DNA from: a virus | IMG/VR virus record: IMGVR_UViG_3300023184_009648 | Location: 1-64,000 of that record | Direction: 5' to 3' (one strand) | Length of the DNA: 64,000 nucleotides | In this document: piece by piece, positions 2,524 through 51,628 of the stretch | How positions within the stretch are numbered: the stretch's first letter is position 1 | Layout: every line of letters starts with the position of its first letter | Position numbers and translations under genes: made by a program | The notes under the pieces: model-generated | Told to the model about the DNA's origin: nothing | What the model saw: only the letters and a program-made list of their open reading frames with translations | Database searches by the model: none

Positions 2524-2777
2524 TGAGCTTAGGATTTGCTCAATTGCCTAATTTGGCTTTTAAAAATCGACGATTAGTCGAACAAAGCCAAATTGCGGGA
2601 TGTTATCATTGCGGAAAAACTTTTTTACCTAAAGAAATAAAACAATATACAGACAATGAACAAACAATTATTTGTCCATTATGTGGTGTTGATGCAGTTT
2701 TGGGTGATATGGCAGGATTTTCAATTACAGAACAAAATTTGCAAAATGCCCAATATTATTGGTTTAAAAAGAATTAA
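2523..2777 (+). CDS. Small Zn-ribbon protein (CYHC...CPLCGVDAV)
   Basis: Two CxxC pairs; TGATG coupling to the portal stop. Confidence 0.7.
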   Translation: MSLGFAQLPNLAFKNRRLVEQSQIAGCYHCGKTFLPKEIKQYTDNEQTIICPLCGVDAVLGDMAGFSITEQNLQNAQYYWFKKN

Positions 2778-3121
2778 ACTTTGTAGCCATCTGCAGAATT
2801 AGGATAAAGAGCTTCTTCTTCGCCAGAACGATCACCTAAACCTTTGTCGTTAAAAGTGCCATTCTGTTTGCTTTTTACATCTGGAAAAGAATCAAGACGA
2901 AAATCGTTTAGCATTCTTTTGATATCTGGCTCATTTCTTTGCTGGTTTAGAAAAGCAATAATAATTTCTGGACGACTTTCTAGAATTTTTTGAACAGCCC
3001 TCATAGCTATTTCAACAGCTTGTGCAGATTTTGGGTCACGCTCTTGATTTTCAGCATCTTTTTCAGACTTTTCATAAGAAGCTAATTCACGAAAAGATAC
3101 ATAATCGCCAAATGTTTTCAT
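2774..3121 (-). CDS. Hypothetical protein with capsid-targeting-like N-terminus (MKTFGDYVSFRE)
   Basis: Start chosen at MKTF with GAGG upstream; resembles the T4 IP leader. Confidence 0.65.
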   Translation of the reverse strand: MKTFGDYVSFRELASYEKSEKDAENQERDPKSAQAVEIAMRAVQKILESRPEIIIAFLNQQRNEPDIKRMLNDFRLDSFPDVKSKQNGTFNDKGLGDRSGEEEALYPNSADGYKV

Positions 3122-3281
3122 TTCTTTCCTCATTTTTACATTCTACAGCATACTTATATACTAGGCGGAACAAATTTTATTCCACGAAGAATAGAATATG
3201 AGATTGAAGTATACATACTTCATCTGCAAGCACCGAACCGCATGTAATTCGGATACTACCAGCACAGGGAGCTTAGTTATT

Positions 3282-5036
3282 ATGAAGAGAAAACTGATCA
3301 GCTTCGATGCATTTAAGAAAATCGAAGAAAGTTCACTTACAAAAACACAACAAGAATTGATCAAGGCTGAAGAAGTGCTTGCAAGAACACTGGGAGTCGA
3401 TGAACTCAAGCTGTTCTCGTTCGGCGAATCTGATGTCACATATCAGACGACGGACGGCAACTTCATTCATGCCGTTTATACTATTGATAACAATTCTGTT
3501 ATACTCGAAAACATAGAATTGCTCGTTATTGAAGAAGAAAGCGAGCGTTCTTCCGCAAAGAAAATTCTCAACGATCTCGTTGACAGCATTCTTGAAAACA
3601 AGGTTGCTGAAGCCGATTTGTTGTTTGAGAATTATTTCAATCTTCCTTGCATTCGTCGCACTATAACGAATGAAGGTGCAAAAGCTTCTCCTCTTAAAGG
3701 TCACAAACAAGATGCGGCTCTTATTGCAAAGCGCACAGCGTCACGCAATAGAACCTTATCTCTTATGAGCTCTACCTTGCGTAAATCCAAGCTTGGTGGC
3801 AAAAAGAAGAAGCCTTTTAAACTTTTCTTCAAGAAAATGAGCGAAAAGAAGATGAAGGATTGTGCTACCGTAGCTGAAAATGTTTTAGGTTACATCAATT
3901 TTCAACAATATGGCCCAATAATCAATGAATCTGCTGTTCGAACGGATAATCAAGGTTCTGTGACAGCTGTTCGCATTCCAACTGAATTAAAGCGCAATGA
4001 ATCTAAAGTTTTAAGCTTGGGCTATAAGACCATGGACACCGAATTAAAGGTTCTTCGTGGTAAGTTGAAGCACATTAACGAAGATCAAACTTTCGTTAAA
4101 GCTATGGCTGATCTCAAGCGTTACAATAACATTTCAGACAATAGGGCTTTGGAAGAAACACTTGAATCTATTGTTTCTCGTTGGCCTGATCTTCTCTACA
4201 TTAGCGAAGCAGAATTGTCAGATCAAATTGCTGCTGCTTTAGAAACCGCAAATGTAAAGAATTATGATGACCGCACATGTGCTTTTATGGCTGAAGCCAT
4301 TTTACGCACTGCACATCATGCTTACACTGATCGTGTTCGCAAGATTGGCGTTCTTGGTGGTGCTAAATCTGATATTACCGCTGAGTGCAAAACTTGTGAA
4401 GACGCTTATAAGTCTTTTTCCTCTGTTTCTGAAAGTTTGTTTAATCAACTTGACGAAAGCGAAGAGAACGAACTTCATATTTTTGCCGATCTTTACAACG
4501 CCTTGAACGAAGTTCATCGTGCTGCTGTTGAAGCAAACGATGAGGCAACCCGAATTGAAGTCTCTGACTTTATGAAGGAATGTGCTGCTATCGTAAATCG
4601 CAAAACCGAAATCAACATGGAATTGGCTGAATCTATTGCCGATTACCTTGCAAATATTTTTGAAGGCGATGAAGGCTCACATTGGGATACTGGCGTTGAA
4701 GTTGACGCTATTGGAAACCACAGCATGACTAAGTGGAACGCTAAGCAATCTGCTGTTGCTAGCAATAACACTGGCATGTGGAAAAGCCCTGCTCCCGTAA
4801 GCAACGGCAAGAGTTATTCTGATGGTCTTGAAAATGAAGCTGGTCTCGGAAATATTGCCTCGGATTCTACTTGGCCCGATGTCAAGAATCCCTATCTTCT
4901 CCAAAGTCAAATGCCAAAAATGAAAGAAAAGAATGTGGCTGATGAGGATGGATTAGGCGGAACCGATGGAAATACTTGGCCTAACCTTAGCAATCCCATG
5001 GCTCTCAAGCCTGTGATGCCCAAACCTGTTGTTTAA
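3282..5036 (+). CDS. Putative prohead core/internal head protein
   Basis: Lies between portal and protease (position of T4 gp67/gp68); AGGGAG RBS before ATG 3282; many L/I-x-E sites; helical, with a TWPxxxNP repeat at the C-terminus. Confidence 0.6.
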   Translation: MKRKLISFDAFKKIEESSLTKTQQELIKAEEVLARTLGVDELKLFSFGESDVTYQTTDGNFIHAVYTIDNNSVILENIELLVIEEESERSSAKKILNDLVDSILENKVAEADLLFENYFNLPCIRRTITNEGAKASPLKGHKQDAALIAKRTASRNRTLSLMSSTLRKSKLGGKKKKPFKLFFKKMSEKKMKDCATVAENVLGYINFQQYGPIINESAVRTDNQGSVTAVRIPTELKRNESKVLSLGYKTMDTELKVLRGKLKHINEDQTFVKAMADLKRYNNISDNRALEETLESIVSRWPDLLYISEAELSDQIAAALETANVKNYDDRTCAFMAEAILRTAHHAYTDRVRKIGVLGGAKSDITAECKTCEDAYKSFSSVSESLFNQLDESEENELHIFADLYNALNEVHRAAVEANDEATRIEVSDFMKECAAIVNRKTEINMELAESIADYLANIFEGDEGSHWDTGVEVDAIGNHSMTKWNAKQSAVASNNTGMWKSPAPVSNGKSYSDGLENEAGLGNIASDSTWPDVKNPYLLQSQMPKMKEKNVADEDGLGGTDGNTWPNLSNPMALKPVMPKPVV

Positions 5037-5050
5037 ATAAAGGAGTTTTC

Positions 5051-5728
5051 ATGGATAACAATCAGGTCTTATTTATTGATTGCTGCACCAACGGCGGCTT
5101 CCACATGAATCTGAACGAGTCAGTCACCGATAGGGGACTGACTAAGTTTAGAGGAAAGTTCCAAGAAGCTGAAGCTGTCAATAAAAACAAGCGTATCTAT
5201 CCCTTTTCAGTACTCGACGAAAATGTCAAGAAACTGAATCCTATTATTGAAGCTCGTGGATTGATTGGTGAGTTAGATCACCCTACCGATTCAATCATCC
5301 ACTTTGACAAATGCTCCCATGTTGTTACAAAACTATGGTGGGAAGGCAATAATCTTATGGGCGAAGGCGAAATTCTCAATACACCTTATGGAAAGATATT
5401 AAAAACTCTTTTAAATGATGGTGTGCGTGTTGGAATTAGCAGCCGTGGCGTCGGAAATGGACGCAGCGACGAAAATGGAATTCTAGTAATTGGTGAAAGC
5501 TACAAACTCATTACATTTGATGCCGTAGCAGATCCTTCAACTCATTCAGCATTCCAAGAAAAAGTCGTGGGTGGCAAGAAAGAAAGCTATGTTCCGACTG
5601 AAAGCCAAGCTCCTGCTAAATTCTTAACAAAAAATGAATCCAAGAAACATGTTTCGAAAGACGCACTCTTGGCCTGCATTAGTGGCATCATTAAGAATGA
5701 AGCATCTGCTATCGCATCTAGGATCTAA
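5051..5728 (+). CDS. gp21: Prohead core protease
   Basis: NKNKRIYP, GELDHP, VGISSRGVG and FDAVADPS motifs; AAGGAG RBS. Confidence 0.95.
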   Translation: MDNNQVLFIDCCTNGGFHMNLNESVTDRGLTKFRGKFQEAEAVNKNKRIYPFSVLDENVKKLNPIIEARGLIGELDHPTDSIIHFDKCSHVVTKLWWEGNNLMGEGEILNTPYGKILKTLLNDGVRVGISSRGVGNGRSDENGILVIGESYKLITFDAVADPSTHSAFQEKVVGGKKESYVPTESQAPAKFLTKNESKKHVSKDALLACISGIIKNEASAIASRI

Positions 5729-5759
5729 ATTTGTAAATAATTTGCCTAACAAGGAACGC

Positions 5760-6761: not shown

Positions 6762-6888
6762 TTCGTTATTTTTGAAAAAAATAAATACAGCTGCATACTT
6801 ATATTATGCAACATGTTCACAAAAAGCCAAATTACGATTTTGCCTTGATGGGTGGAATGGTTTTTTTGATTAAAAATTTTGTTGTCAG

Positions 6889-6924: not shown

Positions 6925-7827
6925 ATGGACAAGATTTTAGAAGCATTGAAAAATCTCTTACCTGAAGCAGAAGTCAATGAAGTGGCTAATGCTATTAACG
7001 GTTTGTTGGAGCAGGCTAAACAAGACCTAGAAACTGAATACAATTCTAAACTTGAAGAAGCCTATGCCGAGCTTACTACCGAATTAGGTAATGCTGAAGA
7101 AACTGCAGAGACTGGCTACGAAGAAGCTTACGCCATTATTGGCGACCTTCGTAATCGTCTTGAAGTTCAAGGCCAAGAATACCAAGCCGCTCTTGAAGAG
7201 GGCTATGAAGAAGCGTATCAGATGCTTAAAGCTGAACGCTCCAAAAATCAAAATATCGAAGTTGAAATGTATGAAGAATACGACAAGAAACTTCGTGAGA
7301 TGAAAGAATACATTGTTAACAATGTAGATAAGTATCTCCAATTCAAAGGTCAAGAAGTTTACGAACAAGTTCGTCGTGAAGTTCTTGCTGATCCTCGTAT
7401 TGTTGAGCACAAGGTTGCTCTTGATAAGATTATCGGCATTACCTCCAATTATGTGTCTGCTGACGAATTCGCTGGCGTGAACAACGCTAAGGTCGAAGAA
7501 GCCATCAAGCAAGTTGATGAACTTAAAGGTCAGTTACGCATTCTTGAAGCTCGCAATATCCGAATCAGCACGGAAAACACCAAGCTGAATGAGGCTGTTC
7601 GTCAAGCTCAAGATGTTATCAATGAGAGCCGACAAGTCGTTTCTCGTGAAAAGAAAGCCGCTGTTATCAGCGAGCAGAATGAAAGAGTACAGAAAGCAAA
7701 GAATGTAACGGGGAGAGGAAACACTTCCAGCCAACAAGTTGTCATTGCGGAACATGCCAACAGTGCTGGTGGTAACGCCGATTTGGACCAAATGTTGGTT
7801 CTATCGGGCTTGAAACGAGCTAACTAA
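6925..7827 (+). CDS. gp22: Prohead scaffold protein (gp22-like)
   Basis: Acidic coiled coil directly upstream of MCP; VDKYL motif; C-terminal MLVLSGL. Confidence 0.8.
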   Translation: MDKILEALKNLLPEAEVNEVANAINGLLEQAKQDLETEYNSKLEEAYAELTTELGNAEETAETGYEEAYAIIGDLRNRLEVQGQEYQAALEEGYEEAYQMLKAERSKNQNIEVEMYEEYDKKLREMKEYIVNNVDKYLQFKGQEVYEQVRREVLADPRIVEHKVALDKIIGITSNYVSADEFAGVNNAKVEEAIKQVDELKGQLRILEARNIRISTENTKLNEAVRQAQDVINESRQVVSREKKAAVISEQNERVQKAKNVTGRGNTSSQQVVIAEHANSAGGNADLDQMLVLSGLKRAN

Positions 7828-7866: not shown

Positions 7867-9300
7867 ATGAACGCTAATGCAGCATTTTTGAACGAGGCTA
7901 AGGAGTTGGAAACTCGCTGGTCTAAGACCGGACTCCTCGAAAACATTCAGGATCGATATGTCCGTGCTACGACAGCAGTCCTTCTCGAAAACCAAAGGCT
8001 TATGAACGAAACCAGCACCGACACAGGTGATGTGGCCCAGTTCAAACGCATCTCGATCCCGCTGGTTCGCCGTATTTATCCCCAGCTGATCGCTAACAAG
8101 ATCGTTTCTGTCCAGCCATTGCTTGGACCAACCGGTCTCGTTTACTATCTCCGTTTCCGTTACGCATCCAATAAGGGTGCTACCCGTGGAGCAGACAAAC
8201 TCGGCTTCCCCGGCGATGACGCTAACTCCCTCATGCAGAGGGCTGACGGTACAGCCAATTTGGATGTATTCTACTCCAGCCAATTCGTGCAAAATGAAGT
8301 GAGCGCAACTGACGCTGGTCTCACCACCACCGCTTCTTACGCCGCTTTTGAGCACACCCCCATTCTTGCTGGAACCGTAACTGGTACCATCTATGATGGT
8401 GGCACAGCTATCCAGACCTTTACTGTGTCTGCAGCTGGTGCTTTCGCTTTCAATGATATCGGATCTCCTTCCCCCAAGGTGACCGCTGGTAGCCTTAGCC
8501 TTACCTCTGGTGAGCTTACCTTGACTTGGAACAGCGCTCCCGGTAGCAACAATGTTGTTATATCTTATGAATACAACATGGAATGCAACCAAGATCTTCC
8601 CGAAATCAACCTCGTTGTTGAAGGCGAAGAAATCGCTGCTAAAACTCGCAAGCTCAAGGCTGTATGGAGCTATGAAGCTCAACAAGACCTTCGCAGCCAG
8701 CACAATCTGGACGCTGAGGCTGAATTGACAGCTGTTCTTGCTCAGGAAATCAACCTCGAAATCGACCGTGAAGTTCTCGGCGACTTGCGCAACAACGCAG
8801 GTACCGTTAGTGCATGGGATTTCAACACCGCTCTAGGCGAAACCATCAAGGAAAAATACGAAAGCCTTTATGTTAAGGTTGTAGAAATTTCCAATGTTAT
8901 CCACAGAAAGACCCTTCGTGGTGGTGCTAACTGGATCGTGACCAGCCCAGAAGTTGCCTCGATCTTCGAGACCGCTACCGCTGGCTTCGCTCCTGCTCCT
9001 AGCGAAACCTTCACAAGCTCCATCGGCGTTCAATATGTCGGTACTGTGAACAATCGTTGGAGGCTCTACAAAGATCCTCTCTTCCCAAGCAATCAAATCC
9101 TCATGGGTTACAAGGGCGATAGCTACATGGACAGCGGTTATTTCTACTGTCCTTATGTTCCTCTCACCCAAACCCCTGTTGTGTTAGATCCTGAGAGCTT
9201 CTGCCCTCGTAAAGGAATTTTAACACGCTATGGTAAGAAATTGCTCCGTGAAGGTGCTAAGTTCTACGCCCGTATGTCGATTGCAAACTTCGTAATCTAA
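7867..9300 (+). CDS. gp23: Major capsid protein
   Basis: VQPLLGPTGLVYYLR, AKTRKLKAVWSYEAQQDL, EINLEIDRE, YCPYVPL and GILTRYG motifs; highly-expressed codon bias. Confidence 0.97.
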   Translation: MNANAAFLNEAKELETRWSKTGLLENIQDRYVRATTAVLLENQRLMNETSTDTGDVAQFKRISIPLVRRIYPQLIANKIVSVQPLLGPTGLVYYLRFRYASNKGATRGADKLGFPGDDANSLMQRADGTANLDVFYSSQFVQNEVSATDAGLTTTASYAAFEHTPILAGTVTGTIYDGGTAIQTFTVSAAGAFAFNDIGSPSPKVTAGSLSLTSGELTLTWNSAPGSNNVVISYEYNMECNQDLPEINLVVEGEEIAAKTRKLKAVWSYEAQQDLRSQHNLDAEAELTAVLAQEINLEIDREVLGDLRNNAGTVSAWDFNTALGETIKEKYESLYVKVVEISNVIHRKTLRGGANWIVTSPEVASIFETATAGFAPAPSETFTSSIGVQYVGTVNNRWRLYKDPLFPSNQILMGYKGDSYMDSGYFYCPYVPLTQTPVVLDPESFCPRKGILTRYGKKLLREGAKFYARMSIANFVI

Positions 9301-11681: not shown

Positions 11682-11969
11682 ATGAAATTCTCTGATTTTT
11701 CCGCTGCTATGAATGAGCACAAAGATGCTAGTTTTGCCGTCGTTGGCCTTAAGGGCAAAATGATGGACGCTGTTATTGCTGACAATCTTGTGAAGTTATC
11801 ACTTGTTGAACAGCCCAAAAAGCATTTTGAAACTGTTGCCAATGTACTTGTAGTTATTGGCAAACTTGATGCTGCTGCAGCTGCCAATTTGGAAGTTGTA
11901 GTAAATGGCAAAGTTATTACTTCTGCTGAGTTCAATGGCGAAGACTATATGGTTTGCAAAGTTTCCTAA
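11682..11969 (+). CDS. Hypothetical protein, CTS-like start (MKFSDFSAAMNE)
   Basis: Strong AAGGAGG RBS; AATATATA upstream. Confidence 0.7.
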   Translation: MKFSDFSAAMNEHKDASFAVVGLKGKMMDAVIADNLVKLSLVEQPKKHFETVANVLVVIGKLDAAAAANLEVVVNGKVITSAEFNGEDYMVCKVS

Positions 11970-12546: not shown

Positions 12547-13410
12547 TTATTTTCTTTTTTTGATTTCTTCAACTAAATTTGATACAAGCTTTACGGCAGC
12601 GTCGATAAGTTCGCTTTTTTTAGCCTCTATATTATTAACGCTATAAGCTTTTTTATAACCAAAAACATGCCCTGATATACAATTTTCGGGTACAAAAATG
12701 CCTGAATATCGGCATTGATTAACAATCGGCATAATAGCTTGTTCTGGGCTTATATAATAGTTACTTTTCATTTCGGCCATAGCAAGTGGCATACGACGAC
12801 CAACATAGTCATTTGCTCCATCATCGCCATGGATAAAGAAAGCTCCAACCTTACCTTCATAATGATTTTTAAGTAGCTCCCTATGCTTTCCTGATCTTTC
12901 CATAGCAATAGTCACAGATGGATCTTTAAATTTATCACCCATAATTTTTTTTGCATCTTTTTGATTAAGTGTCAAACTAACACAAACAAGACGATCAAAA
13001 AATGCTTTAACTTGGGTTGAAGGGGCATACCAGTGAACTGGGGTAAATACGGCAAAACCATCTGCTTCTTCCATTTTTTTATAAACATCTTCTTCGTGCA
13101 TGTAATCATTAGTTCCATCGCCTTTTGAATAGCAAGAACAAGGATAATGGCAATGGAAGCCGTTTGATGTTGCCACACATCCTTTGCATGGTCGAACTAC
13201 GGGATCTGTATCCATAACTCTGAGATTAAGGGGTATAACCTTAATGTCTTTTGCAAGTGATTGTAGGGCTTTATTATAAATAAATTCAGTTTTTGAATCA
13301 CCGCCAGAACATGAGTCTTTAGTTCTAGGGCTGCCTTGAATAACAACGATTTTGATGCCTTCATCATTGTTTTTAGTAGTTTCTGCGAGATATTCAACAA
13401 ATGTCTTCAT
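12547..13410 (-). CDS. Flavodoxin-fold NAD(P)H-dependent FMN reductase / iron-sulfur flavoprotein with CTS-like leader
   Basis: VIQGSPR, PCKGC..CHYPCSC, EADGFAVFTPVHWY, FFDRL; likely start MKTFVEYLAE at 13410. Confidence 0.85.
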   Translation of the reverse strand: MKTFVEYLAETTKNNDEGIKIVVIQGSPRTKDSCSGGDSKTEFIYNKALQSLAKDIKVIPLNLRVMDTDPVVRPCKGCVATSNGFHCHYPCSCYSKGDGTNDYMHEEDVYKKMEEADGFAVFTPVHWYAPSTQVKAFFDRLVCVSLTLNQKDAKKIMGDKFKDPSVTIAMERSGKHRELLKNHYEGKVGAFFIHGDDGANDYVGRRMPLAMAEMKSNYYISPEQAIMPIVNQCRYSGIFVPENCISGHVFGYKKAYSVNNIEAKKSELIDAAVKLVSNLVEEIKKRK

Positions 13411-13453: not shown

Positions 13454-13783
13454 ATGAAATCATTTAATGAATATTTGGCGGAAAAAGATGAGATAAACAT
13501 ACATGAAGTTGCAAAAAAAACTGCTACGAAAAAAGATGTAAAGAAAAAAGATGTAAAGAAAAAATCATCAACTGTTCCAAGCAGCAATCGTATTAAGGGT
13601 ATGGTTGCACTGGTCGATTCGCTTAAAAAGTTTTTTGGCGAATATGACTTACCTACCCGTCAATTTCTTTGGAACAGGCTTACCACACCAAAAGGCAAGG
13701 AATTATTGGAAAAAGTGCTAAGAAATCCTAATGCAAATCTTACGAATAGTGTTTTTGTGCAATTGGTTACAACAAAGAAATAA
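13454..13783 (+). CDS. Basic hypothetical protein, CTS-like start (MKSFNEYLAE)
   Basis: AAGGAG RBS; KKDVK repeats. Confidence 0.7.
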   Translation: MKSFNEYLAEKDEINIHEVAKKTATKKDVKKKDVKKKSSTVPSSNRIKGMVALVDSLKKFFGEYDLPTRQFLWNRLTTPKGKELLEKVLRNPNANLTNSVFVQLVTTKK

Positions 13784-14603: not shown

Positions 14604-14948
14604 TTAATTTGAGCACCTACATTTCCAAACTCTGAGTGCAGCATTGATTTTGCTATTAGGATCATTAGCTGTTGCAGCAGAGGTGTTGTGTTTACGCATA
14701 CCGCACATGCGACTGCAAAAACTTTTGCGTCGAGCTTGGGTTTTTTCTGACATCTTGCTGACTCCACCTTTTCGTTCTGCTTCTCGCTTAGTTTCAATTC
14801 CTGCGTGAATTCCAAGTTTTTTTGCATAAGAAGGCTTTAATCCACCTTCAGGATGATGTTTTTTAGGGTTAAAGCCTCTAAATGGTTTTTTGTTTTCATC
14901 CAGAATTTTTGGATCACGGTTATTCAGCCATTCGTGAAAACTTTGCAT
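14604..14948 (-). CDS. Basic protein with RRKSFCSRM..DPNSKINAALRVWKC motif (recalled from T4-like cyanophage proteins, DUF6321-like); CTS-like start
   Basis: MQSFHEWLN start; GAGGAG RBS; CATAAATA upstream. Confidence 0.65.
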   Translation of the reverse strand: MQSFHEWLNNRDPKILDENKKPFRGFNPKKHHPEGGLKPSYAKKLGIHAGIETKREAERKGGVSKMSEKTQARRKSFCSRMCGMRKHNTSAATANDPNSKINAALRVWKCRCSN

Positions 14949-14999: not shown

Positions 15000-15176
15000 A
15001 TGACATTCAAAGAGTGGCTTACGAAGATTGAAGAGGCTTGGTTTAGTAAGGGCAAAGGTCGTCCTATGAAGCCTAATGCTAGAGATGTTAAGCCTAAACC
15101 TCATGATCTGCATAATTGCGGACAAGGTGGTGGACCCGGCCCTTGCGATGGCGGAGCTCCAGTTGCTGCTGGCTAA
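15000..15176 (+). CDS. Small protein, CTS-like start (MTFKEWLTKIEE)
   Basis: CTAAATA 5 nt upstream of the ATG. Confidence 0.6.
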   Translation: MTFKEWLTKIEEAWFSKGKGRPMKPNARDVKPKPHDLHNCGQGGGPGPCDGGAPVAAG

Positions 15177-16810: not shown

Positions 16811-17347
16811 TTAATCCTCCAAGACTCCAGCATCATTTAGAGACCGAGCAAGTTTTATAAGATGTTTGCACATACCGGGCAGTTCCAAAGGATTGGAAGA
16901 GCCGGGATTTACTTTCGCTTCATACTTTGATCGCACACGCCCATATAACAACTTGCGAAGACTGTCCTCGTAATTGAAACGCCAATAAAAATCGGCACAA
17001 TTACAACGAACTACGACTTCGTTGGTGTAGTTAATTTTTTCAAAGACATGTTTGCGTCCATCACTTGCAACAATCTCAATCCAGTTACGGTTCTGCTTAG
17101 AATCGTGGTAATTAACCTTTTTAAACAAGATGAGAGGCTTGTATTCCTTGCCATTTCCTTCATTCTTGGCCAACCCTTTGACCAATAGAGTTTTAACACC
17201 TTTAAAGGGTGTCCAGTCCATTTGACGAACAACAATTTCATCTATTGCGTGTTGTCGCTTGGTGGTTCTAGGGAAAGCCCTAATTGTGTCTGCGTACAAA
17301 CCTGAAAGATTTGCCTCTTGCAGGGATAACCATTTTGTAAACTCCAT
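16811..17347 (-). CDS. SWIM-type Zn-finger protein with CTS-like start (MEFTKWLSLQE)
   Basis: VRCNCADF...GMCKHL. Confidence 0.7.
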   Translation of the reverse strand: MEFTKWLSLQEANLSGLYADTIRAFPRTTKRQHAIDEIVVRQMDWTPFKGVKTLLVKGLAKNEGNGKEYKPLILFKKVNYHDSKQNRNWIEIVASDGRKHVFEKINYTNEVVVRCNCADFYWRFNYEDSLRKLLYGRVRSKYEAKVNPGSSNPLELPGMCKHLIKLARSLNDAGVLED

Positions 17348-17859: not shown

Positions 17860-19983
<2,124 letters not shown>

Positions 19984-22725: not shown

Positions 22726-22932
22726 ATGTTACCGGGATTCAAACAATGGTTAGAAGAACTACTCTCTAAGGATAGTCCTTCTTCTGCAGGCGATTTGGAT
22801 GACAGTCAATCCAATTCTGATCGTGCTTTTGGCCGTAGTGGCGCAAAAAGCAAAAATTTTGCTCCCGGCAAGCCAGAAAATATTACGATCCGCAATCCTG
22901 AAAAAATGTTTGGCAAGAAGGAAAAGTCATGA
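22726..22932 (+). CDS. Small protein, CTS-like start (MLPGFKQWLEE)
   Basis: CTAAATA 4 nt upstream; first of four coupled ORFs. Confidence 0.65.
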   Translation: MLPGFKQWLEELLSKDSPSSAGDLDDSQSNSDRAFGRSGAKSKNFAPGKPENITIRNPEKMFGKKEKS

Positions 22933-23240
22933 ATTTTCAACGCTTGTGGGAAAGCATAGAATTAGCAAAAGAAAAAAAGCAGCCTGTGGAAAATAAGGCT
23001 ACATCAGCTATCCGCACGGGAATTGGGATTGATGAAAATTTTTGGGACAATTTTCTTCTTCTTCTAAATAATGCTGAAGGTTTAGGAGAGCTTCTTGATG
23101 TTGATGCAGATGTAATTGGAACATGGGCAAATAAAATCAATAATGCTCGCAAACAAGTTTCTGATTCTGATGATCAAGAAGATGTAAAGAAAAATAAAAA
23201 ACTTATAAAAACAAGCATTCCTGAGGGTGAACCAAAATGA
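22929..23240 (+). CDS. Hypothetical protein, CTS-like start (MNFQRLWE)
   Basis: ATGA coupling. Confidence 0.65.
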   Translation: MNFQRLWESIELAKEKKQPVENKATSAIRTGIGIDENFWDNFLLLLNNAEGLGELLDVDADVIGTWANKINNARKQVSDSDDQEDVKKNKKLIKTSIPEGEPK

Positions 23241-40697: not shown

Positions 40698-40922
40698 ATG
40701 AAAACATTCGTTCAATGGGCTGAAACAGTAAAGAAAGAACTTCCAGTTTATGTGCAAGACGAGGCGACTCGTCGTGCCGGTATTGCATATTGGGCTTACC
40801 CTGATGCTTATATTCGCAATCAATATCCCGATTCTTGGTTCACTCCTTATGCTGCTGATGCTGCTTTCAAGCTAGGCTATGCAAAAGGTGGTCCAAAAGC
40901 TGGTAAGGAAATTGCGGGTTAA
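40698..40922 (+). CDS. CTS-like small protein, paralog 1 (MKTFVQWAE)
   Basis: GAGG RBS; GIAYWAYPD motif. Confidence 0.7.
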   Translation: MKTFVQWAETVKKELPVYVQDEATRRAGIAYWAYPDAYIRNQYPDSWFTPYAADAAFKLGYAKGGPKAGKEIAG

Positions 40923-41230
40923 TGAAAACTTTTTTACAATGGGCTGAAATTAAACATCGGGAACTTCCTGTCTATCAGACAGATGAAGGCGGTGGCAGCA
41001 CAGCACGCAACGGCATAGCTTATTGGGCTTACCCAGACGGCTATATTCGTTCACACTATCCTGATGCTTACTTTATGAGTCGTGCTCCTGACGCTCTTTG
41101 GAAAATGTCTCCCGGACCTCCAATTACGCCTCATAAACATCATGTTCATCACATGACGCCACCTGATTATGCGATTGGACCTGATGGACAGGTAAGAAAA
41201 GAAAAAGAAGTCGAATACGAAACTGATTGA
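40922..41230 (+). CDS. CTS-like small protein, paralog 2 (MKTFLQWAE)
   Basis: TAATG coupling; GIAYWAYPD motif; His-rich tail. Confidence 0.7.
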   Translation: MKTFLQWAEIKHRELPVYQTDEGGGSTARNGIAYWAYPDGYIRSHYPDAYFMSRAPDALWKMSPGPPITPHKHHVHHMTPPDYAIGPDGQVRKEKEVEYETD

Positions 41231-41294: not shown

Positions 41295-41300
41295 ATAGTT

Positions 41301-42751: not shown

Positions 42752-43226
42752 TAGGGTCTCTATATTGAACCCAATCGGAAAAAGATTTTCTGAAATGGTA
42801 CAAAATTTTACGCTTAAAAAATGGCCAAGATTCTTTAAAGCTAGAGTGTAATTTTAAATTTTCTACTTCATCAATGTTAACCCAAACACTATCACTATGT
42901 TCGTCAGAAATACTTACTTTAAAAGGTTTATCAATAGCATAAAAAAAAGTAGTAAAACGAAATCTTCCATCAATATCTTCATAATCACCAAAACGATAAC
43001 CTTCAAAATTTCCACATTCTTCAATAGCTTCTCGTTTGGCAGCATCTATAGTACTTTCGCCTTGTTCAACTTTTCCACCGGGTATGCACCAGCTTTCAAA
43101 GTGATTTCCTTTAGTGGCTCGTTTCAATAAAAGAATTTTTTGGCCATCAGTGAAAAGAATGCCAGCACCTGATTTGCCCCAATATTTTCTTCCATCTCTA
43201 CCAATCCGATGATACTGTTCGTTCAT
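42738..43226 (-). CDS. NUDIX hydrolase
   Basis: Nudix box GGKVEQGESTIDAAKREAIEECG. Confidence 0.92.
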   Translation of the reverse strand: MNEQYHRIGRDGRKYWGKSGAGILFTDGQKILLLKRATKGNHFESWCIPGGKVEQGESTIDAAKREAIEECGNFEGYRFGDYEDIDGRFRFTTFFYAIDKPFKVSISDEHSDSVWVNIDEVENLKLHSSFKESWPFFKRKILYHFRKSFSDWVQYRDPTILP

Positions 43227-43816
43227 CGCTTTGGACCTCTCTTCAACGGAACCGGTTTAAGCTTTTCTATTTGTCGATCTGGCTGATCTTTAAAATAATG
43301 CATTGTATTAGTTAATTCACGGCTAATTTCAGATGCAGAAGTGCCTGTGCATTTTGTGGAGTTTTGTAATGAAACTGTTTTACGATCACGGTTGTAAAAT
43401 CCTTTACTCAAAACAAAACATCTAAGTTCAGGATGCCAAGTTACAACGCCTACCCATTCACCATCATCCCAATTACGAGATGAAACAATTAGGCGTAAAG
43501 GTTTTTCACTATAAACATGTTTTGTGTGATAACCTTGATTTTTCATTGCAGCACTAATATAGCCAAGACAAATGCGAGCAAAACCTTCAAGGGCTTCGTC
43601 GGCTTTTGTACGATAATTGACCTCAACACTGTAGCGTGAGGTTTCAACAGCTTCTACTAGGTTTTTTTGACGATATTCTTGAAAAGTCTTCATAGAACCA
43701 CGAAGAGTGGCTCCAAAATATTCTTTGCAAATTTGAACAAAATCTTCTTGTGAGACTTCTTTAGGCATAAAGTCTGCAAGACTCTGTTCCTTGCGCCAAT
43801 TAAAAAAATCTTTCAT
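43223..43816 (-). CDS. Hypothetical protein with two CTS-like motifs (MKDFFNW; internal MKTFQEY..LVE at 43693)
   Basis: GGAG RBS before 43816. Confidence 0.65.
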   Translation of the reverse strand: MKDFFNWRKEQSLADFMPKEVSQEDFVQICKEYFGATLRGSMKTFQEYRQKNLVEAVETSRYSVEVNYRTKADEALEGFARICLGYISAAMKNQGYHTKHVYSEKPLRLIVSSRNWDDGEWVGVVTWHPELRCFVLSKGFYNRDRKTVSLQNSTKCTGTSASEISRELTNTMHYFKDQPDRQIEKLKPVPLKRGPKR

Positions 43817-43842: not shown

Positions 43843-44487
43843 ATGAAGATTTCTAATTTTAAACAATGGCTTCAAGAGCAAGAAAGATCTGGTGATTTTT
43901 TTGAAACCACCATTGGAACTGAAGAAGTTGAAGCTGGACAAATTGAAAGTATTTATTCTAAAGCCAAAATTTCAGTAATGATGGTTCGTCTTTATGATCA
44001 AATGACTGGTCAAAAACTCTTGACAAATATATCAACAATTGCCAATTTATCTGGAAGTGCTTATGGCGTTTATGTTAGCAGCGAAAATAAAAAAGCAATT
44101 GGTTCAGATGTCATAAATCAAATTAAACTTATTTATCCTAATGACCCAGCCTTAGGTCAAAAACTACAAAAACTGCCGAAGAAAACAATTGCTCAATACA
44201 TTCCTCAGATTGATCCCAAAAAAATCATTCCTTCAGATGTGATTCATGTTGATGTTTTAAAGCACATGAGAGAATTAGGTGATACACCAGCAGCTATTGT
44301 TGAAATTGCATCAACAATTGTTCATGAAGCAACACATGTTAAAGAATTTGAAGAAATTGGTAGTACCCGAGATGGTCCGGGAACTGCTGTTGATGTGGCA
44401 GAAAAAAGTTTTAAAAATTGGGCCAAACAAAATTGGCCAATGTTAAGTCAAAAATTTAATTTTCAAGGACCATTTCCTTTTAAATAA
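43843..44487 (+). CDS. HExxH metallopeptidase-like protein, CTS-like start (MKISNFKQWLQE)
   Basis: ASTIVHEATHVKE..AE; CTATATA 4 nt upstream of the ATG. Confidence 0.65.
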   Translation: MKISNFKQWLQEQERSGDFFETTIGTEEVEAGQIESIYSKAKISVMMVRLYDQMTGQKLLTNISTIANLSGSAYGVYVSSENKKAIGSDVINQIKLIYPNDPALGQKLQKLPKKTIAQYIPQIDPKKIIPSDVIHVDVLKHMRELGDTPAAIVEIASTIVHEATHVKEFEEIGSTRDGPGTAVDVAEKSFKNWAKQNWPMLSQKFNFQGPFPFK

Positions 44488-45447: not shown

Positions 45448-48258
45448 ATGCAAACATCATTCAGAGAATTTCTATTTCAAGCCATTGAAAAAGATGGAGC
45501 TTATAAGTTTTTAAAGCCAACGATTCGTAAAATCGATGAAATGGCTTTATACGGGGATGTTTCTCGTATGCCAATCAATATCGACAAAGATGATATTGAT
45601 TTTTTAAAACAATTTCCACATCAGTATTGGCCCGAGGCGATGCATCAAAGATATCAATATCTTTTTCATGCAATTAAAAAACAACATGAAACTCGTAAAG
45701 CAATGGGGTGGGATGAATTAGAAGATGCTATTATTGATGCTATGAAAACTGGCGATTATTCTAAGTTAGAAACCCTTGAAGAGCCTCTTGCTTTAGACAA
45801 AAAAGAAATAGAAAAAATTAAAGAATTCAAACCAGAGTATACCGCCACTCTTGAAGACGATGAAATAGAAAAAATCGCAGACAAAATTGCATGGGAACAT
45901 TTAAAAAAATCTACAGATTTTGTTGATGACCCAGAAACTCTTGAGTTTTCTTTTAAAGAAAAACTACTTCATCCAACAACTGGTAAGCCTATTAAAACTC
46001 GTACTCAACGGCGTTTTACAAAAACAGCTAAGCCATTCTTAAATCGTCTTTATCATAAAATTGAGCGCACCGCTGGATTGCCTCATATATCGGGTTCCGG
46101 TCTTGAAGGAGAAATTGCAAAGTATGGCTATGATCTTCGTAACCCGATTGAAGATCCAGAAGGAGCTCATGCTACCACTGGATTTGCTATTCCTAAACTT
46201 GGAGCAATTAAAGATCGTATGCGTGCTTTTATGAATTTAAACGCACACAGCATGTTTGGAAAAATTGATGATCCTGATGTTGTTTGGAAGCCTGTTAATG
46301 CAGAAGATAGTGAAACTGCTGAACAATATCTTAATGTTTATCGCAAAGAATTTGAAGCTCAGCTTAAGAAAAACAAAAATTTGACAATGGATCAGGTTCA
46401 ATCTCAGGCTCGGAAGCTATCAAAGGAAAAATTAGCTGAAAAATTTCCTAATGGAACACTTCGTGGCCCTGCATATCCGGGCGTCGAAGGTGCTGAAAAT
46501 GGTTTTCCAGTAACATTTAAGCGCAAAGAAAATGGTGAAATTCAAGTAATAAATCCACCACTCTATATGCCTTTCAAAAAAATGCCTAATGGCGAACTTG
46601 CTCCTTATCCTGAGGTAAAATCCGCCCATTTCTACCGACCTCTTAGAGACAGTGAATATGTGCGAGATGATCAAGGAAACAAAGTTAAAGATGAAAACGG
46701 TAATTTTAAAACAACAGTAAACCCTGAAAAATTAACTGGTCACAAAAAAGACCATGTTAAAATTGATGATGATGAATTTCAATATGGAATCGATATTCAA
46801 AAAGATGCTGCGATTGATCCTAATCATAACACTCAAAAGAAAGATTTTTTAGTTCGTGGAACATCCGAATACGAAGAAGCTTTTAGTAAAGTTTTTGCAA
46901 ATCAATCTGAAGTTGATGTTGTAAATGGAAGAATGGTTGATGCTCCTCACAGTGGTCTCTATCGAGATATTATACAAGGAATTTTAAATTGCGTTCGCAA
47001 CAAATGTGGAGACATGACTGATTTTGAAGCTGCAATTATGATGCAGAATATATCACAAATTCATGGTTTGATCTATATGTCTATGCTTGAAAGTCTAAAT
47101 CTAAAAAAACAAGCTAGAAGCTTAAGTGATAAAAATAATCGTGTAGAATGGGCTTTCAAAAAGGCTTCATCTTATGCTCAAAAAGATCATGGTGGAGGCA
47201 CACGCCGTCTTCGTGCTCTTAGCGATGCTGCTCGTGCTACACAAACTCGTCGTCACACAACAAGGCGTCGTTTCGACACTTCGGGAATGAAATTCCCTTA
47301 TCGAATTGAAAACTACAATAAGTTTCTTCAAGATCTTGCTGACTTGCGTGAGCGTGCTGCAAAGGCTGATGCTGAAGCAAAACAAGCTGTAGCAGCTGTG
47401 TCTCGTCGTCGTTCTGCATCAGAAGGAATTGGAAATTTACTCACAACATCTTTGCAAGACCGTGCTAAAGTAGCTGATGACCTTGTATTGTTATTAGCTG
47501 TTATTCACCAAGAGTTTGGCGAAGGCACAACTGATTCTCAAAAATACGCAGAAGACACAATTAAGTCTTTCATTGAACAAGGTATGGACTCTATTCAACT
47601 TGTAACAGCTTTTCAAAATTTAGATGTTGTTAAAAAGGCAAAAGAAGAACTCAAGGTTGAACCAGATGTTGGCTCTACCGAAGAACCTAAAGTCAGTACT
47701 GATTCTGATATGCAAAGAGAAATTAGAGATGCTAACAACATCTTTGGCAACGATTTCAATATTGATTTGCAAAGGGTTTCTGGAAACAAACAACATCCTG
47801 AAATTTTATCAAAATACAAAGCAACCATCTCCGGAGCTCTTAGTCGATATGTAAGCACAGAATTAAAACAAAAAATTAAAGGTGAACATCAATGGCTTAG
47901 CATGCCCGAAGGTGCTGAAGATCTAGACAAAGTTCTTAAAGCCGTTCAAAAGGCAATTGATGAACGCATGGCTATGCCAGAATTACCTAGAGGTGCAGAA
48001 ACAGGAGGACAAGCTCGTGTTCGCATAGGAACAGATTCCGGCAAAAACTGGTTTCAAAATCTTCAATCACAAACACCAGAAGGCTATTTTCATGTAGCAC
48101 ATGATCCAATTTTTCATAAAAGGGCTCCAGTAGAAAAATTAAAAGATTTGAAAAATTATTTTAATCAAAACGCAGATAAATTTCACCCTGAAGACCATGC
48201 ATCAGCATTGAATGCATTAGATGCAGCAATCAGAGAAAAAAAGGTGACTAATGGCTAA
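45448..48258 (+). CDS. 936-aa hypothetical protein, CTS-like start (MQTSFREFL..KIDE); candidate internal virion protein
   Basis: Long ORF; no recognised catalytic motif. Confidence 0.65.
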   Translation: MQTSFREFLFQAIEKDGAYKFLKPTIRKIDEMALYGDVSRMPINIDKDDIDFLKQFPHQYWPEAMHQRYQYLFHAIKKQHETRKAMGWDELEDAIIDAMKTGDYSKLETLEEPLALDKKEIEKIKEFKPEYTATLEDDEIEKIADKIAWEHLKKSTDFVDDPETLEFSFKEKLLHPTTGKPIKTRTQRRFTKTAKPFLNRLYHKIERTAGLPHISGSGLEGEIAKYGYDLRNPIEDPEGAHATTGFAIPKLGAIKDRMRAFMNLNAHSMFGKIDDPDVVWKPVNAEDSETAEQYLNVYRKEFEAQLKKNKNLTMDQVQSQARKLSKEKLAEKFPNGTLRGPAYPGVEGAENGFPVTFKRKENGEIQVINPPLYMPFKKMPNGELAPYPEVKSAHFYRPLRDSEYVRDDQGNKVKDENGNFKTTVNPEKLTGHKKDHVKIDDDEFQYGIDIQKDAAIDPNHNTQKKDFLVRGTSEYEEAFSKVFANQSEVDVVNGRMVDAPHSGLYRDIIQGILNCVRNKCGDMTDFEAAIMMQNISQIHGLIYMSMLESLNLKKQARSLSDKNNRVEWAFKKASSYAQKDHGGGTRRLRALSDAARATQTRRHTTRRRFDTSGMKFPYRIENYNKFLQDLADLRERAAKADAEAKQAVAAVSRRRSASEGIGNLLTTSLQDRAKVADDLVLLLAVIHQEFGEGTTDSQKYAEDTIKSFIEQGMDSIQLVTAFQNLDVVKKAKEELKVEPDVGSTEEPKVSTDSDMQREIRDANNIFGNDFNIDLQRVSGNKQHPEILSKYKATISGALSRYVSTELKQKIKGEHQWLSMPEGAEDLDKVLKAVQKAIDERMAMPELPRGAETGGQARVRIGTDSGKNWFQNLQSQTPEGYFHVAHDPIFHKRAPVEKLKDLKNYFNQNADKFHPEDHASALNALDAAIREKKVTNG

Positions 48259-49206: not shown

Positions 49207-49330
49207 AAATGAGCCTGTTTCTGTGAAAGGTTGTTAGAATATTGTAGATAAAATACTATCTATTTTGATAAGACAACAAAAACAGTTTGAATAAAAATGT
49301 CTTATATTCAATTGAACACAAGGATTTAAA

Positions 49331-49756: not shown

Positions 49757-49828
49757 AAATTTTTTGGATATAGTCTTTTTATTTAAAAAAACAAAATACA
49801 AAGGTAAATAAAGTTAAAGAGGTAAATC

Positions 49829-50743
49829 ATGCGTATCCCAGAATTTAAGAGTTGGTTTGTTGAGCAAGAAACATTTACTTTTATTGAGGTCATCCGTGAG
49901 GTTCTTGAATTAAGAAATCTTACTGAGAGCATTCAAGCTCTTGAAGATGAAATTTCTAAGGCAACTGGCGTTCAAGCAAACTGGGTAAATATTTTAGGAG
50001 CTAAAGCCATGCGTAGTGGCAGATTTTCGCCAAGAGATTTGCGTGGCGAACATGCTGCATTCGAAGCTCTTACTAGAATTCTTATGGATCTTCAACCGGG
50101 TAAAAATTTAAAAAATACAGTTGATGAAATTGGTGATCGTTTAGCTGATAATCCAGAGCGAAAAAACAAAGAAATCATTGCTCTTTTAACTTCAGTTGCA
50201 GGAAAAAGAGGCATTGATGTTCGCAAGCGCATTACAAGCAAAGATGATGAAGGTGCTCCTATAGGGGTTGGATCTATTGATAGCGAAGAGGGAATGGGAG
50301 CTATGCACACGGCTCTTAGTGGCCGAAGAGGCGGAAGCGTAACTGGTGCTGATTTGAGCGAATTTGAGGAAATGATGATCAATGCTCTTCGCCAAATGCA
50401 ACAGGGAGCAACTCGTCCTACCCAAGAACGCCTTGAGCAAGCTATTAAAATTGTTCCAGATCGTCTCAAAGGCATGACGGATACTGAGCTTGCTGCTCAT
50501 CACAATTTAAGCGATTCAAGAGTTGAACAAATTATGCAAGACATTTTTGCTGCTATGGAAAAGGCAGCCCAACAACTTGGCGAGCCATGGATTAGTCAAG
50601 TCCGTCGTCAGTTGGCAATGCGTCGAAGGCCTCGTGCTGTTGTAGAGCCTACTTCAGCTAGTTCTTCTATTGGTTCGTCAACAGCTACCGCTCATCCTGC
50701 ACCTTCACCGTTGATTCACGGGTCTGCTGAAACAGGACTGTAA
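49829..50743 (+). CDS. Sigma-factor-like protein with CTS-like start (MRIPEFKSWFVEQE)
   Basis: Region-2-like LLTSVAGKRGIDVRKR, SID linker, region-4-like HTH GMTDTELAAHHNLSDSRVEQI. Confidence 0.5.
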   Translation: MRIPEFKSWFVEQETFTFIEVIREVLELRNLTESIQALEDEISKATGVQANWVNILGAKAMRSGRFSPRDLRGEHAAFEALTRILMDLQPGKNLKNTVDEIGDRLADNPERKNKEIIALLTSVAGKRGIDVRKRITSKDDEGAPIGVGSIDSEEGMGAMHTALSGRRGGSVTGADLSEFEEMMINALRQMQQGATRPTQERLEQAIKIVPDRLKGMTDTELAAHHNLSDSRVEQIMQDIFAAMEKAAQQLGEPWISQVRRQLAMRRRPRAVVEPTSASSSIGSSTATAHPAPSPLIHGSAETGL

Positions 50744-50761
50744 TCTATCGAGGAGGACAAG

Positions 50762-51304
50762 ATGGCCTTAAAAAATCTCGATGGAACACCATATCAAGTA
50801 AGAGGCAGCTATCAGATGTATGATCCAAATGATCGTACACATGATTTGTTTAATCTTTGGGATCAAGAAGCAATTAAAAGAGGCGGCTCTCCAATTTACT
50901 ATTACGAGGTCATCATTTCTCCAAATATGATTGACCCCATTTATCTTGAAGCTCGCAACAAATTGTTTTCAAACAATCCAGTACAATTGTGGTGTAATTA
51001 TGAGCCTATTCCATCTCAGAATCTTATCAATCAATTTGGAATAGATGCTCCAGATGAAATGAAATTTGAATTAAATTACAGAGCCCTTTTACAAGCTGTG
51101 GGACATCCTCCCAAGATTGGATCTCGTTTATTCACTCCTCATTTGCGAGAAAATTGGGTAATTGTACAAAGAAATCTTGGTGAGTTTAAAATGTGGGGAG
51201 CTTTGCGTATTGAATTGATATGTCAAAGATTTCAAGAAGATGTTGTTACTGGCGATGGTAAGGTTTCTCAAAAAGAACCTGATCTTAAAATTAAAATTGT
51301 ATAA
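50762..51304 (+). CDS. gp14: Neck/head-completion protein
   Basis: QEAIKRGGSPIYYY, DPIYLE, QFGIDAPDE, PKIGS. Confidence 0.7.
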   Translation: MALKNLDGTPYQVRGSYQMYDPNDRTHDLFNLWDQEAIKRGGSPIYYYEVIISPNMIDPIYLEARNKLFSNNPVQLWCNYEPIPSQNLINQFGIDAPDEMKFELNYRALLQAVGHPPKIGSRLFTPHLRENWVIVQRNLGEFKMWGALRIELICQRFQEDVVTGDGKVSQKEPDLKIKIV

Positions 51305-51313
51305 AGGAAAATA

Positions 51314-51628
51314 ATGCTATCATTCTATGAATTAAACCAAAAAATGATTAAAGAAGCTGGTCCGGGTATGGTAGCTGGTCCGGGCATGGCGGCTGGTATG
51401 GCTGGTGCTCCACAACAATCTTTGGCAGCCCAACCACCTGATCCTGCTATAATAAGTCTTCAAAAGGCTCTAACACAAATTAAAGATCCTCAAACAAAAA
51501 GTTCTTTATCAAATTTGGTTAATACAGCACTAAGTCAAAAAACATTAACAGGAAAAGTTCCACCTACAGCACAACAACTTAAAGCTGCTCAAACGATGCA
51601 AGCATACCAACCAACAAAAACGACTTAA
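51314..51628 (+). CDS. Ala/Gln/Pro-rich small protein, CTS-like start (MLSFYELNQKMIKE)
   Basis: AGPGM repeats; AAGGA RBS. Confidence 0.65.
   Translation: MLSFYELNQKMIKEAGPGMVAGPGMAAGMAGAPQQSLAAQPPDPAIISLQKALTQIKDPQTKSSLSNLVNTALSQKTLTGKVPPTAQQLKAAQTMQAYQPTKTT

Follow-up and report, generated by a model that had tools for sequence, protein, structure and literature searches.

The capsid targeting sequence (CTS) of bacteriophage T4 is the classic portable tag by which proteins are carried into a virus head and from there into the next host, and it is already an engineering tool. In the T4 internal protein IPIII, targeting depends mainly on residues 4 and 7 of the tag and processing on residues 8 and 10, and a review from the Black laboratory regards the tag as possibly an evolutionary device for loading various proteins (PMC9026906). 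Proteases of the gp21 type cleave after Glu (PMC5694885). Here we describe a large set of similar N-terminal leaders encoded in 64,000 nucleotides of viral DNA, positions 1 to 64,000 of the IMG/VR record IMGVR_UViG_3300023184_009648 (hereafter the window), which form the first part of a single 86,320-bp virus contig. An earlier reading of the letters, made without database searches (the sequence-only reading), had listed 21 such N-termini in the window; with five further leaders on the same contig we analysed 26 leader genes, named below by start coordinate and strand. The leader is a tag that is under peptide-level selection, modular, portable and confined to a subset of genes, and it co-occurs with T4-type head-maturation machinery. 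From the sequence evidence set out below, we put the probability at about 0.72 that the shared N-termini are T4-type prohead-targeting propeptides, cleaved by the head protease.

The T4 CTS is the closest comparison. In both phages the tag lies at the extreme N-terminus, spans 10-20 residues, has aromatics at positions 4 and 7 and includes hydrophobic-x-Glu; the T4 tags MKTYQEFIAE and MKTFKEF... can be set beside MKSFRDFIAE (78967+), MKTFVEYLAE and MKSFNEYLAE here. Because some leaders are nearly identical to the T4 tag, cross-testing in T4 should be straightforward. In both, the cargoes are unrelated and fast-evolving, with gp20, gp21 and gp23 homologues and a gp55-type late sigma factor alongside. 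The differences begin with scale: three genes in the 100 kb of T4 that we scanned compare with 9 strict pattern matches, and about 22-27 leaders overall, in the 86-kb contig, in agreement with the earlier suggestion that this phage tags more genes than T4 does. Here Trp is commonest at position 7, and the first aromatic falls at residues 3-6. Some propeptides appear bipartite, with the predicted cut about 20-30 residues downstream, as in the family of a 936-aa protein discussed below. The cargo includes a host-type flavoprotein and proteins of up to 936 aa, known from genes alone, and the lineage is a freshwater one with 29% capsid identity and genomes of up to about 600 kb.

Other head proteins are processed in related ways. 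T4 Alt, gp24, gp67 and gp68 also have N-terminal propeptides that gp21 removes after hydrophobic-x-Glu (PMC5694885), but their leaders (e.g. MELITELFDE, MAKINELLRE) lack the M-K-T-F/Y-x-E-F core; Alt is a large enzyme (682 aa) delivered with the DNA, according to the T4 record annotation. In phiKZ-like giant phages (SPN3US, 201phi2-1 and phiKZ), many head-internal proteins are cut after Glu by a gp21-related protease and ejected into the host, and SPN3US has about 50 head proteins (PMC5694885, PMC7411985). However, phiKZ-like propeptides are mostly longer than 100 residues, have A/S/G-x-E sites and share no common short tag (PMC5694885), whereas the propeptides predicted here measure 7-31 residues and do share one. 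A full-text literature search returned no paper joining capsid targeting with huge or mega-phages. The class of mechanism is already known, and the present case would be a greatly expanded variant of the T4 mechanism; the lineage, the scale, the bipartite propeptides, the enzyme cargo and the frequent fusion of the tag to a promoter box abutting the start are new.

To describe the leader, we aligned 24 of the 26 leaders on their first aromatic residue; the other two could not be anchored. The first aromatic (residue 4) is F or Y in 24/24 and is followed three residues on (residue 7) by W, F or Y in 22/24. Leu is the commonest residue after the second aromatic, and the frequency of Glu is highest at +6 and +8 relative to the first. 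In the commonest form, which begins M-K-S/T-F, the aromatic, aromatic, Leu and Glu columns correspond to residues 4, 7, 8 and 10-12, and these constrained columns coincide with the residues mapped in T4 for targeting and processing. The consensus offered by the sequence-only reading was M-(K)-S/T-F-x-E/Q-W/Y/F and then hydrophobic-x-E. We describe the leader as a short amphipathic helix, M-K-[S/T]-F-x-[E/Q/D]-[W/F/Y]-[L/hydrophobic], followed by hydrophobic-x-Glu at a distance of 10 to about 31 residues from the start. Between genes the leader codons differ synonymously, which places the similarity, and the selection, at the level of the peptide rather than of copied DNA. Hydrophobic-x-E with its Glu at residues 8-16 occurs in 21/26 leader proteins and in 11/86 others (p=1.6e-10), an enrichment that is partly circular because hydrophobic-x-Glu belonged to the definition used by the sequence-only reading. 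The share of Glu at residues 9-13 is 21.5% in the leader set against 4.2% in the other proteins, and the two sets are equal further in.

The specificity of the motif was quantified in three ways. A loose regular expression (M, 0-4 residues, F/Y, any residue, a polar residue, W/F/Y, then hydrophobic-x-E), run on ATGs, matched 17 of 197 ATGs near open reading frame (ORF) starts. Elsewhere it matched 6 of the 397 in-frame ATGs internal to genes and 2 of the 676 that are off-frame. Of these eight exceptions, three are genuine leader starts, 13410- and 15000+ (both scored as internal) and 13454+ (scored as off-frame), in genes that a crude caller had over-extended. The raw contrast between starts and internal ATGs at 80 IMG/VR loci (107/4368 vs 132/7152) looked weak and is not used as evidence; internal matches at 7267+ (in the scaffold candidate) and 220+ (in the portal gene) lie in the conserved head module and presumably recur in most of the 80 loci. 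In T4 (NC_000866) the loose expression also matches the starts of rI.-1 (MKFSDFSQ...), 57B and rnlB, which are either false positives of the loose rule or overlooked CTS-like starts; for rI.-1 a false positive is the probable case.

A strict DNA pattern, ATGAARWSNTWYNNNSANTDB, was built from the T4 tag to encode M-K-[S/T]-[F/Y]-x-[E/Q/D]-[W/F/Y]. Between 50 and 150 kb of the T4 genome it finds exactly ipI, ipII and ipIII, and the reversed-pattern control finds 0. All nine sites in the contig are ORF starts (reversed control 1). The 595-kb genome of the uncultured phage LR756511.1 has 13 sites (reversed control 1), and five large IMG/VR relatives have 4-7 each (reversed controls 0). By contrast, Microcystis phage Mel-JY01, Xanthomonas phage Xoo-sp13, Listeria phage LIS04, cyanophage P-RSM1 and the 484-kb LR756508.1 give 0-1 matches. 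The tag may be ancient or convergent within the T4 superfamily; the cyanophage, Xanthomonas, Listeria and Microcystis relatives that were examined lack it. Finally, a position matrix was trained on 73 leaders taken from IMG/VR relatives only and used to score 1,982 candidate starts of the contig. The mean was -14.6 and the standard deviation (sd) 7.0, and 19 starts scored above 8; the matrix-ranked leader starts lie more than 3 sd above the mean. The N-termini listed by the sequence-only reading occupy the top ranks. All 21 are present where it had placed them, at the start of an open frame or a few codons into it; by the matrix, 13 are strong and three moderate, and five are weak. Its list was incomplete, since a second in-frame leader at 43693 and the five leaders beyond the window were overlooked.

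The tag is attached to many different proteins. BLASTP among the 26 tagged proteins detected a single related pair, the paralogues 40698+ and 40922+, and with this exception the cargoes are unrelated as had been claimed; the cargo sizes given, 58 to 936 aa, are also correct. In the contig together with the regions 10 kb on either side of the capsid gene in 80 relatives, we counted 126 leader ORFs falling into 53 BLAST clusters, many of them singletons, suggesting that the tag is portable and that cargo turnover is quick. LR756511.1 encodes orthologues of nine among the 26 tagged proteins, and the leader is kept in 9/9. The orthologue of 78967+ retains it although the linker to the conserved domain shrinks from 35 to 10 residues. 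Among proteins of the window and contig, the leader is absent from the tail sheath, tail tubes, baseplate hub, sheath stabiliser, adaptor and late sigma factor, and also from a Dam methylase, a Prim-Pol, a LAGLIDADG endonuclease, a subtilase, an esterase, a pyruvyl transferase and an epimerase. The view that the tag is missing from tail, neck and DNA-metabolism ORFs is in line with this, as none was seen on tail, neck, baseplate, replication or sugar-metabolism proteins.

Two cargoes illustrate how the leader relates to the protein behind it. The gene at 12547..13410 (-) encodes a 287-aa flavodoxin/WrbA-like enzyme (Pfam FMN_red, 4e-11) with the strong leader MKTFVEYLAE. Among about 100 orthologues with at least 50% identity, every one begins M-[I/K]-[S/T]-F-x-[E/D]-Y-L-A-E-A-T, and homologues at 45% identity or less start directly at strand beta-1, with no leader. 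The FMN_red domain begins at residue 19; the AlphaFold2 (AF2) model (pLDDT 88.7) has a leader helix at residues 4-11, coil at 12-18 and beta-1 at 19-25. By sequence and model, the leader is an add-on outside a complete flavodoxin fold. The second cargo, the 936-aa product of 45448..48258 (+), has the moderate leader MQTSFREFLFQAIE and a distal site, ...RKIDE/MA, at residues 29-33. Its family comprises 111 representatives at 50% clustering, of which 84 full-length ones were examined. The aromatic core occurs within the first 30 aa in 74/84, against 11% of control windows, and the first 80 aa contain hydrophobic-x-E-[M/F]-A in 73/84, against 4% of controls; in a 36-member alignment, with identity to the window protein down to 17%, conservation is at least 90% at F5, E31 and A33. 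The AF2 model (pLDDT 83) places residues 21-33 below pLDDT 50, with a confident domain from about residue 41, so the predicted cut, IDE/MA, falls in the stretch modelled as disordered. Foldseek matched the model to nothing in PDB or BFVD at E<=0.001, a wide VIA search gave only generic helical-bundle matches with Z<8, and a search with the family profile found no match in PDB or PHROGs. Met-Ala directly follows the conserved predicted cleavage Glu in this family, and a few members in the databases (P0179, P0203, P0206 and P0187) start at precisely this Met. These starts could be miscalled, or they could be internal starts giving an untagged, unpackaged form.

Head genes of the T4 type are encoded close by. 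A portal protein of the gp20 family lies at 1..2523 (+) (Pfam Portal_T4, 2e-72). A prohead protease of the T4 gp21 family follows at 5051..5728 (+) (Pfam Peptidase_S77, 3.6e-24); it is 32% identical to T4 gp21, and its GELDHP and GISSRGVG align with GELNHP and GVSSRGLG, with the His and Ser motifs kept. Removal of the leaders is presumed to be the task of this protease. In the gp22 position, with the protease gene on one side and the capsid gene on the other, 6925..7827 (+) encodes an acidic protein of 300 aa, a candidate scaffold: the order matches T4 genes 21-22-23, and there are 21 hydrophobic-x-E sites across its 300 aa. We presume that it is the docking partner of the leaders. The major capsid protein of the gp23 family, at 7867..9300 (+) (Pfam Gp23, 3e-87), has a propeptide-like N-terminus with the hydrophobic-x-Glu sites LNE10, AKE13, LLE25, LLE41 and MNE48, the next site coming only at residue 162. 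These 48 residues with five sites are, judged by sequence, the pattern expected for a gp23-like propeptide, and the alignment with T4 gp23 (29% identity) runs from residue 53 onward.

We also asked when the tagged genes might be expressed. A box of T4-late type, TA[AT]ATA, lies within 45 nt upstream of 15/26 leader genes and of 16/86 others (p=2.7e-4), the latter including the protease, the scaffold candidate, a tail tube and the adaptor. In LR756511.1 the box stands within 16 nt of 17/36 leader starts against 67/2,162 other near-start ATGs (p=7e-16), an odds ratio that is inflated because the control set includes spurious ORFs. Leader genes without a box mostly follow a leader gene on the same strand (22929+, 23237+ and 23595+ after 22726+, and 40922+ after 40698+). 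The gene at 58101..58646 (-) encodes a late sigma factor resembling gp55 (PHROG 234, late sigma transcription factor, 3e-8; Pfam Sigma70_r2, 1e-6), presumably the reader of the boxes that precede leader genes. Late expression of the leader genes is supported, though not proven, by these sequence features. At 15000, 22726, 43843, 68924-, 77992+ and 78785+, and at many sites of LR756511.1, a CATAAATA, CTAAATA or TATATA box ends 2-6 nt before the ATG and there is no Shine-Dalgarno site, implying leaderless or near-leaderless late mRNAs; ordinary Shine-Dalgarno sites precede leader genes 13454+, 14948-, 11682+ and 49829+. The divergent starts of 43816- and 43843+ are 26 nt apart, with one palindromic TATATA box between them. 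The box stands 4 nt upstream of the ATG of 43843+ and 16 nt (with GGAG) upstream of that of 43816-, and may be a bidirectional late promoter. A similar arrangement is seen at 473532-/473554+ of LR756511.1. The mobile regulatory cassettes of T4-type phages (PMC2839356) are likewise promoter-bearing modules at gene starts tied to gene shuffling, and here the box is often fused to the leader start. They differ in that the leader codons vary between genes here, with no DNA-level repeat or junction demonstrated.

Taken together, these observations suggest the following course of events. The tagged proteins would be made late, from gp55-type promoters. During assembly of the gp23-type shell, the leader helix would dock them on the scaffolding core, and the gp21-family protease would then cut after Glu and free the mature proteins inside the head, where they would be retained. 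Many of the mature proteins would leave with the DNA at infection, by analogy with T4's internal proteins and Alt. Docking, cleavage, retention and injection are the steps that we infer. There is about an even chance that most of the tagged cargoes are injected effectors.

Several points weigh against the interpretation as T4-type propeptides or narrow its reach. The candidate scaffold showed no detectable gp22 similarity and no family match in sequence comparison, Pfam and PHROG searches. The five weak leaders (3282+, 11682+, 19983-, 22929+ and 51314+) are about five poor matches among the 21 of the original list, and T4 rI.-1, not known to be packaged, has the same MKFSDF-type start as some tagged genes. 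Outside the window, 68924- adjoins a CTP-synthase-like gene and 71279- ribonucleotide-reductase-like genes, a nucleotide-metabolism setting, though the ATG of 68924- is preceded at 4 nt by a CATAAATA box of its own. The mature parts have mixed isoelectric points (pI 4.8-10.6) and are not uniformly basic as the T4 internal proteins are; the idea that all cargoes are DNA-binding internal proteins like those of T4 was rejected for this reason. The phage itself is uncultured, known solely from lake and freshwater metagenomes.

The alternative with the most to recommend it accepts that the tag targets the prohead but holds that most tagged proteins are assembly parts of an enlarged core, degraded or left behind like T4 gp22, gp67 and gp68. 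The low complexity of several short cargoes fits this idea, with P/G/Q/S/N making up 57% of 77992+ and 41-46% of 15000+, 22726+, 23595+ and 51314+, as does the location of 3121- and 3282+ at the gp67/gp68 position of T4; hydrophobic-x-E sites in 3282+ number 3.7 per 100 aa, compared with 1.7 in the background. The genomes of relatives reach 595 kb, and the very large heads that they would imply might require more core proteins. Nevertheless, the tag is also found on folded enzymes (the flavodoxin-like 13410- and the FkbM methyltransferase 71279-) and on the 936-aa protein, which is confidently folded in the model. Most cargoes have few or no extra cleavage-type sites, seven having none beyond the leader, and the fast cargo turnover resembles that of the diverse T-even internal proteins (PMC3012670) more than that of conserved assembly parts. 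We therefore regard an assembly role for most tagged proteins as unlikely, while the low-complexity short cargoes and the placement of 3121- and 3282+ suggest that some tagged proteins, especially those of low complexity, may be prohead-core components that are degraded and not delivered effectors.

The N-terminus could instead have a role outside the head, in the translation of leaderless mRNAs, as a chaperone handle, or as the substrate of another protease such as the subtilase encoded in the window at 26281-27306. A box within 16 nt of the ATG, at six leader genes of the contig and 17/36 in LR756511.1, would be compatible with leaderless mRNAs. However, it is the amino acids that are conserved while the codons vary synonymously, and the same peptide is found on the four genes with Shine-Dalgarno sites. 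Cleavage after Glu is not typical of subtilases. It is the known specificity of gp21-type proteases (PMC5694885), the conserved residues are the functional ones of the T4 CTS, and the strict pattern selects only internal-protein genes in T4, all of which makes a non-head role improbable. Even less can be said for the idea that AT-rich starts (ATG AAA ...) produced the motif by chance or through their composition. The G+C content of the contig is 32-41% and Lys is common as a second residue, but the contrasts of starts with internal and off-frame ATGs, the reversed-pattern counts of 0-1, independent matrix scores more than 3 sd above the mean and the 0-1 matches in other T4-superfamily phages reduce its probability to almost nothing, and we rejected it. 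The T4-type capsid-targeting interpretation first put forward from the letters is the one with which the strict pattern, the conserved residues, the S77 protease, the orthologues, the modularity and the specificity, all features of sequence, agree.

The other tagged genes are as follows. The highest matrix score (21.8) belongs to the 115-aa product of 2774..3121 (-), with strong leader MKTFGDYVSFRE, which also matches the strict pattern. Its gene lies between those for portal and protease, the location of gp67/gp68 in T4, with a TATATA box 33 nt upstream, and all 35 members of its family in IMG/VR relatives have a leader ending in L/I/M-K/R-E. Divergent from 13410-, with the starts 43 nt apart, 13454..13783 (+) encodes a basic protein of 109 aa (pI of the mature part 10.2) whose strong leader, MKSFNEYLAE, scores 18.6 and matches the strict pattern; upstream are a Shine-Dalgarno site and a TATATAAG box. 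The strong leader MQSFHEWLNNRDPKILDE of the 114-aa ORF at 14604..14948 (-) (matrix 18.1, CATAAATA box upstream) is of a long form with the predicted cut site at about residue 18, comparable to T4 ipI, MKTFKEF...ITE, at residue 19. The neighbouring 58-aa ORF at 15000..15176 (+) has the strong leader MTFKEWLTKIEE (matrix 15.6) and a TAAATA box 5 nt before the ATG, and the start at 15000 abolishes its overlap with the 14948- gene. At 16811..17347 (-), a 178-aa protein of PHROG 18980 (unknown function) starts with the strong leader MEFTKWLSLQE (matrix 15.1); its LR756511.1 orthologue (51% identity) starts MNFSGWLNES.

A run of four tagged genes is headed by 22726..22932 (+), 68 aa, with strong leader MLPGFKQWLEE (matrix 9.8) and a TAAATA box 4 nt before the ATG. 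It continues with 22929..23240 (+), 103 aa, whose MNFQRLWESIE is weak because the aromatic pair is one position wider and whose LR756511.1 orthologue starts MTFLEAWESVRKLKE; with 23237..23593 (+), 118 aa, whose MKSFSQWKMQE is a moderate leader (strict-pattern match, matrix 7.2); and with 23595..24035 (+), a Pro/Gln-rich 146-aa ORF with strong leader MKSFYEFCRLLE (matrix 16.1, strict-pattern match). The 350-aa product of 35433..36485 (-) has the strong leader MLSYKHWKSLNE (matrix 14.8) and only a weak match to an EF-hand/dockerin-like calcium loop. The paralogues (4e-14) are 40698..40922 (+), 74 aa, with the moderate leader MKTFVQWAE, and 40922..41230 (+), 102 aa, with the strong leader MKTFLQWAE (matrix 11.6); both match the strict pattern, and the LR756511.1 orthologue of the former starts MVKTFMQWAEE. 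The strong 197-aa ORF at 43223..43816 (-) has tandem leaders, MKDFFNWRKE at residue 1 and MKTFQEYRQKNLVE at residue 42 (Met 43693), scoring 15.2 and 6.7. Its LR756511.1 orthologue (61% identity) begins at the position of the second leader (MLNFKDYVEE), so that the arrangement is either a duplicated tag or an upstream extension. The 214-aa product of 43843..44487 (+) has the strong leader MKISNFKQWLQE (matrix 10.3), also present in its orthologue, and the 304-aa product of 49829..50743 (+) has the strong leader MRIPEFKSWFVE (matrix 8.9). The latter has a sole homologue (83% identity) among 5.8 billion proteins; an assignment as sigma-like was rejected, as no Pfam sigma domain was found at E<=0.05 and PDB sequences gave only troponin-like noise.

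Four weak leaders remain. The 584-aa ORF at 3282..5036 (+), with MKRKLISFDAFKKIEE, has no matrix score and no Pfam or PHROG match; it is a candidate prohead-core protein by position, and its LR756511.1 orthologue keeps the N-terminus (MKRKLINYDVFQKISE). The 95-aa ORF at 11682..11969 (+), with MKFSDFSAAMNE, matches the loose expression and has the MKFSDF start. In the 707-aa product of 17860..19983 (-), MITFSQRLQIE, the second aromatic residue is missing; there is a TATAAATA box 26 nt upstream, and a leader-like SFVDWL stands at residues 32-37. In the Ala/Gly/Pro-rich 104-aa product of 51314..51628 (+), with MLSFYELNQKMIKE, Leu replaces the second aromatic, and the start ranks below the top matrix scores. 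Beyond the window, leaders are found at 68924-, 71279- (a weak MKFSDF start on an FkbM-type methyltransferase), 77992+ (Pro/Gly-rich, 105 aa), 78785+ and 78967+. Searches of Pfam, PHROGs and PDB sequences matched few of the cargoes, and most have no functional assignment.

The window also encodes a tail sheath, two tail-tube paralogues, a baseplate hub, a sheath stabiliser and a head-tail adaptor. The portal gene is interrupted by an intein (Intein_splicing, 6e-12, residues 114-331), ahead of the Portal_T4 domain. A TnsA-like/restriction-fold endonuclease gene (9446-10249) directly follows the capsid gene, and a LAGLIDADG endonuclease gene (15593-16180, -) lies amid tagged genes; each is probably a mobile insertion. 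No family match was obtained for the 333-aa ORF at 5760-6761 (-), located between the genes for the protease and the candidate scaffold, and the subtilase (Peptidase_S8, 2e-51) is phage-encoded and has no leader. No tRNA genes were found in the 64-kb window. The capsid protein is 79% identical to that of LR756511.1, IMG/VR holds 397 relatives with contigs as large as 533 kb, and near-identical DNA is present in lake and freshwater metagenomes of several studies. These capsid relatives and DNA matches make it probable that the contig is part of a large T4-superfamily phage from fresh water. Phage records searched by megablast with the head module gave no match, relatives being reachable at the protein level only.

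These results have several consequences for this lineage. Tentatively, and at somewhat less than even odds, we propose that a widespread freshwater lineage of T4-related phages, large to huge, uses one tag as an address label that loads dozens of fast-evolving proteins, captured host-type enzymes included, for co-injection, that the tag is often fused to a leaderless late promoter, and that the promoter-plus-tag unit might be a gene-capture cassette. If so, the injected proteome of uncultured phages would be readable from sequence, and the promoter-plus-tag unit might turn any acquired ORF into a delivered effector. The tag has been multiplied about tenfold in a distant uncultured lineage, and with a simple sequence rule one could pick out, in phages that cannot be cultured, the proteins that are packaged and probably injected. 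About 50 unknown protein families would thereby become candidate effectors of the first minutes of infection, with possible anti-defence or host-takeover roles.

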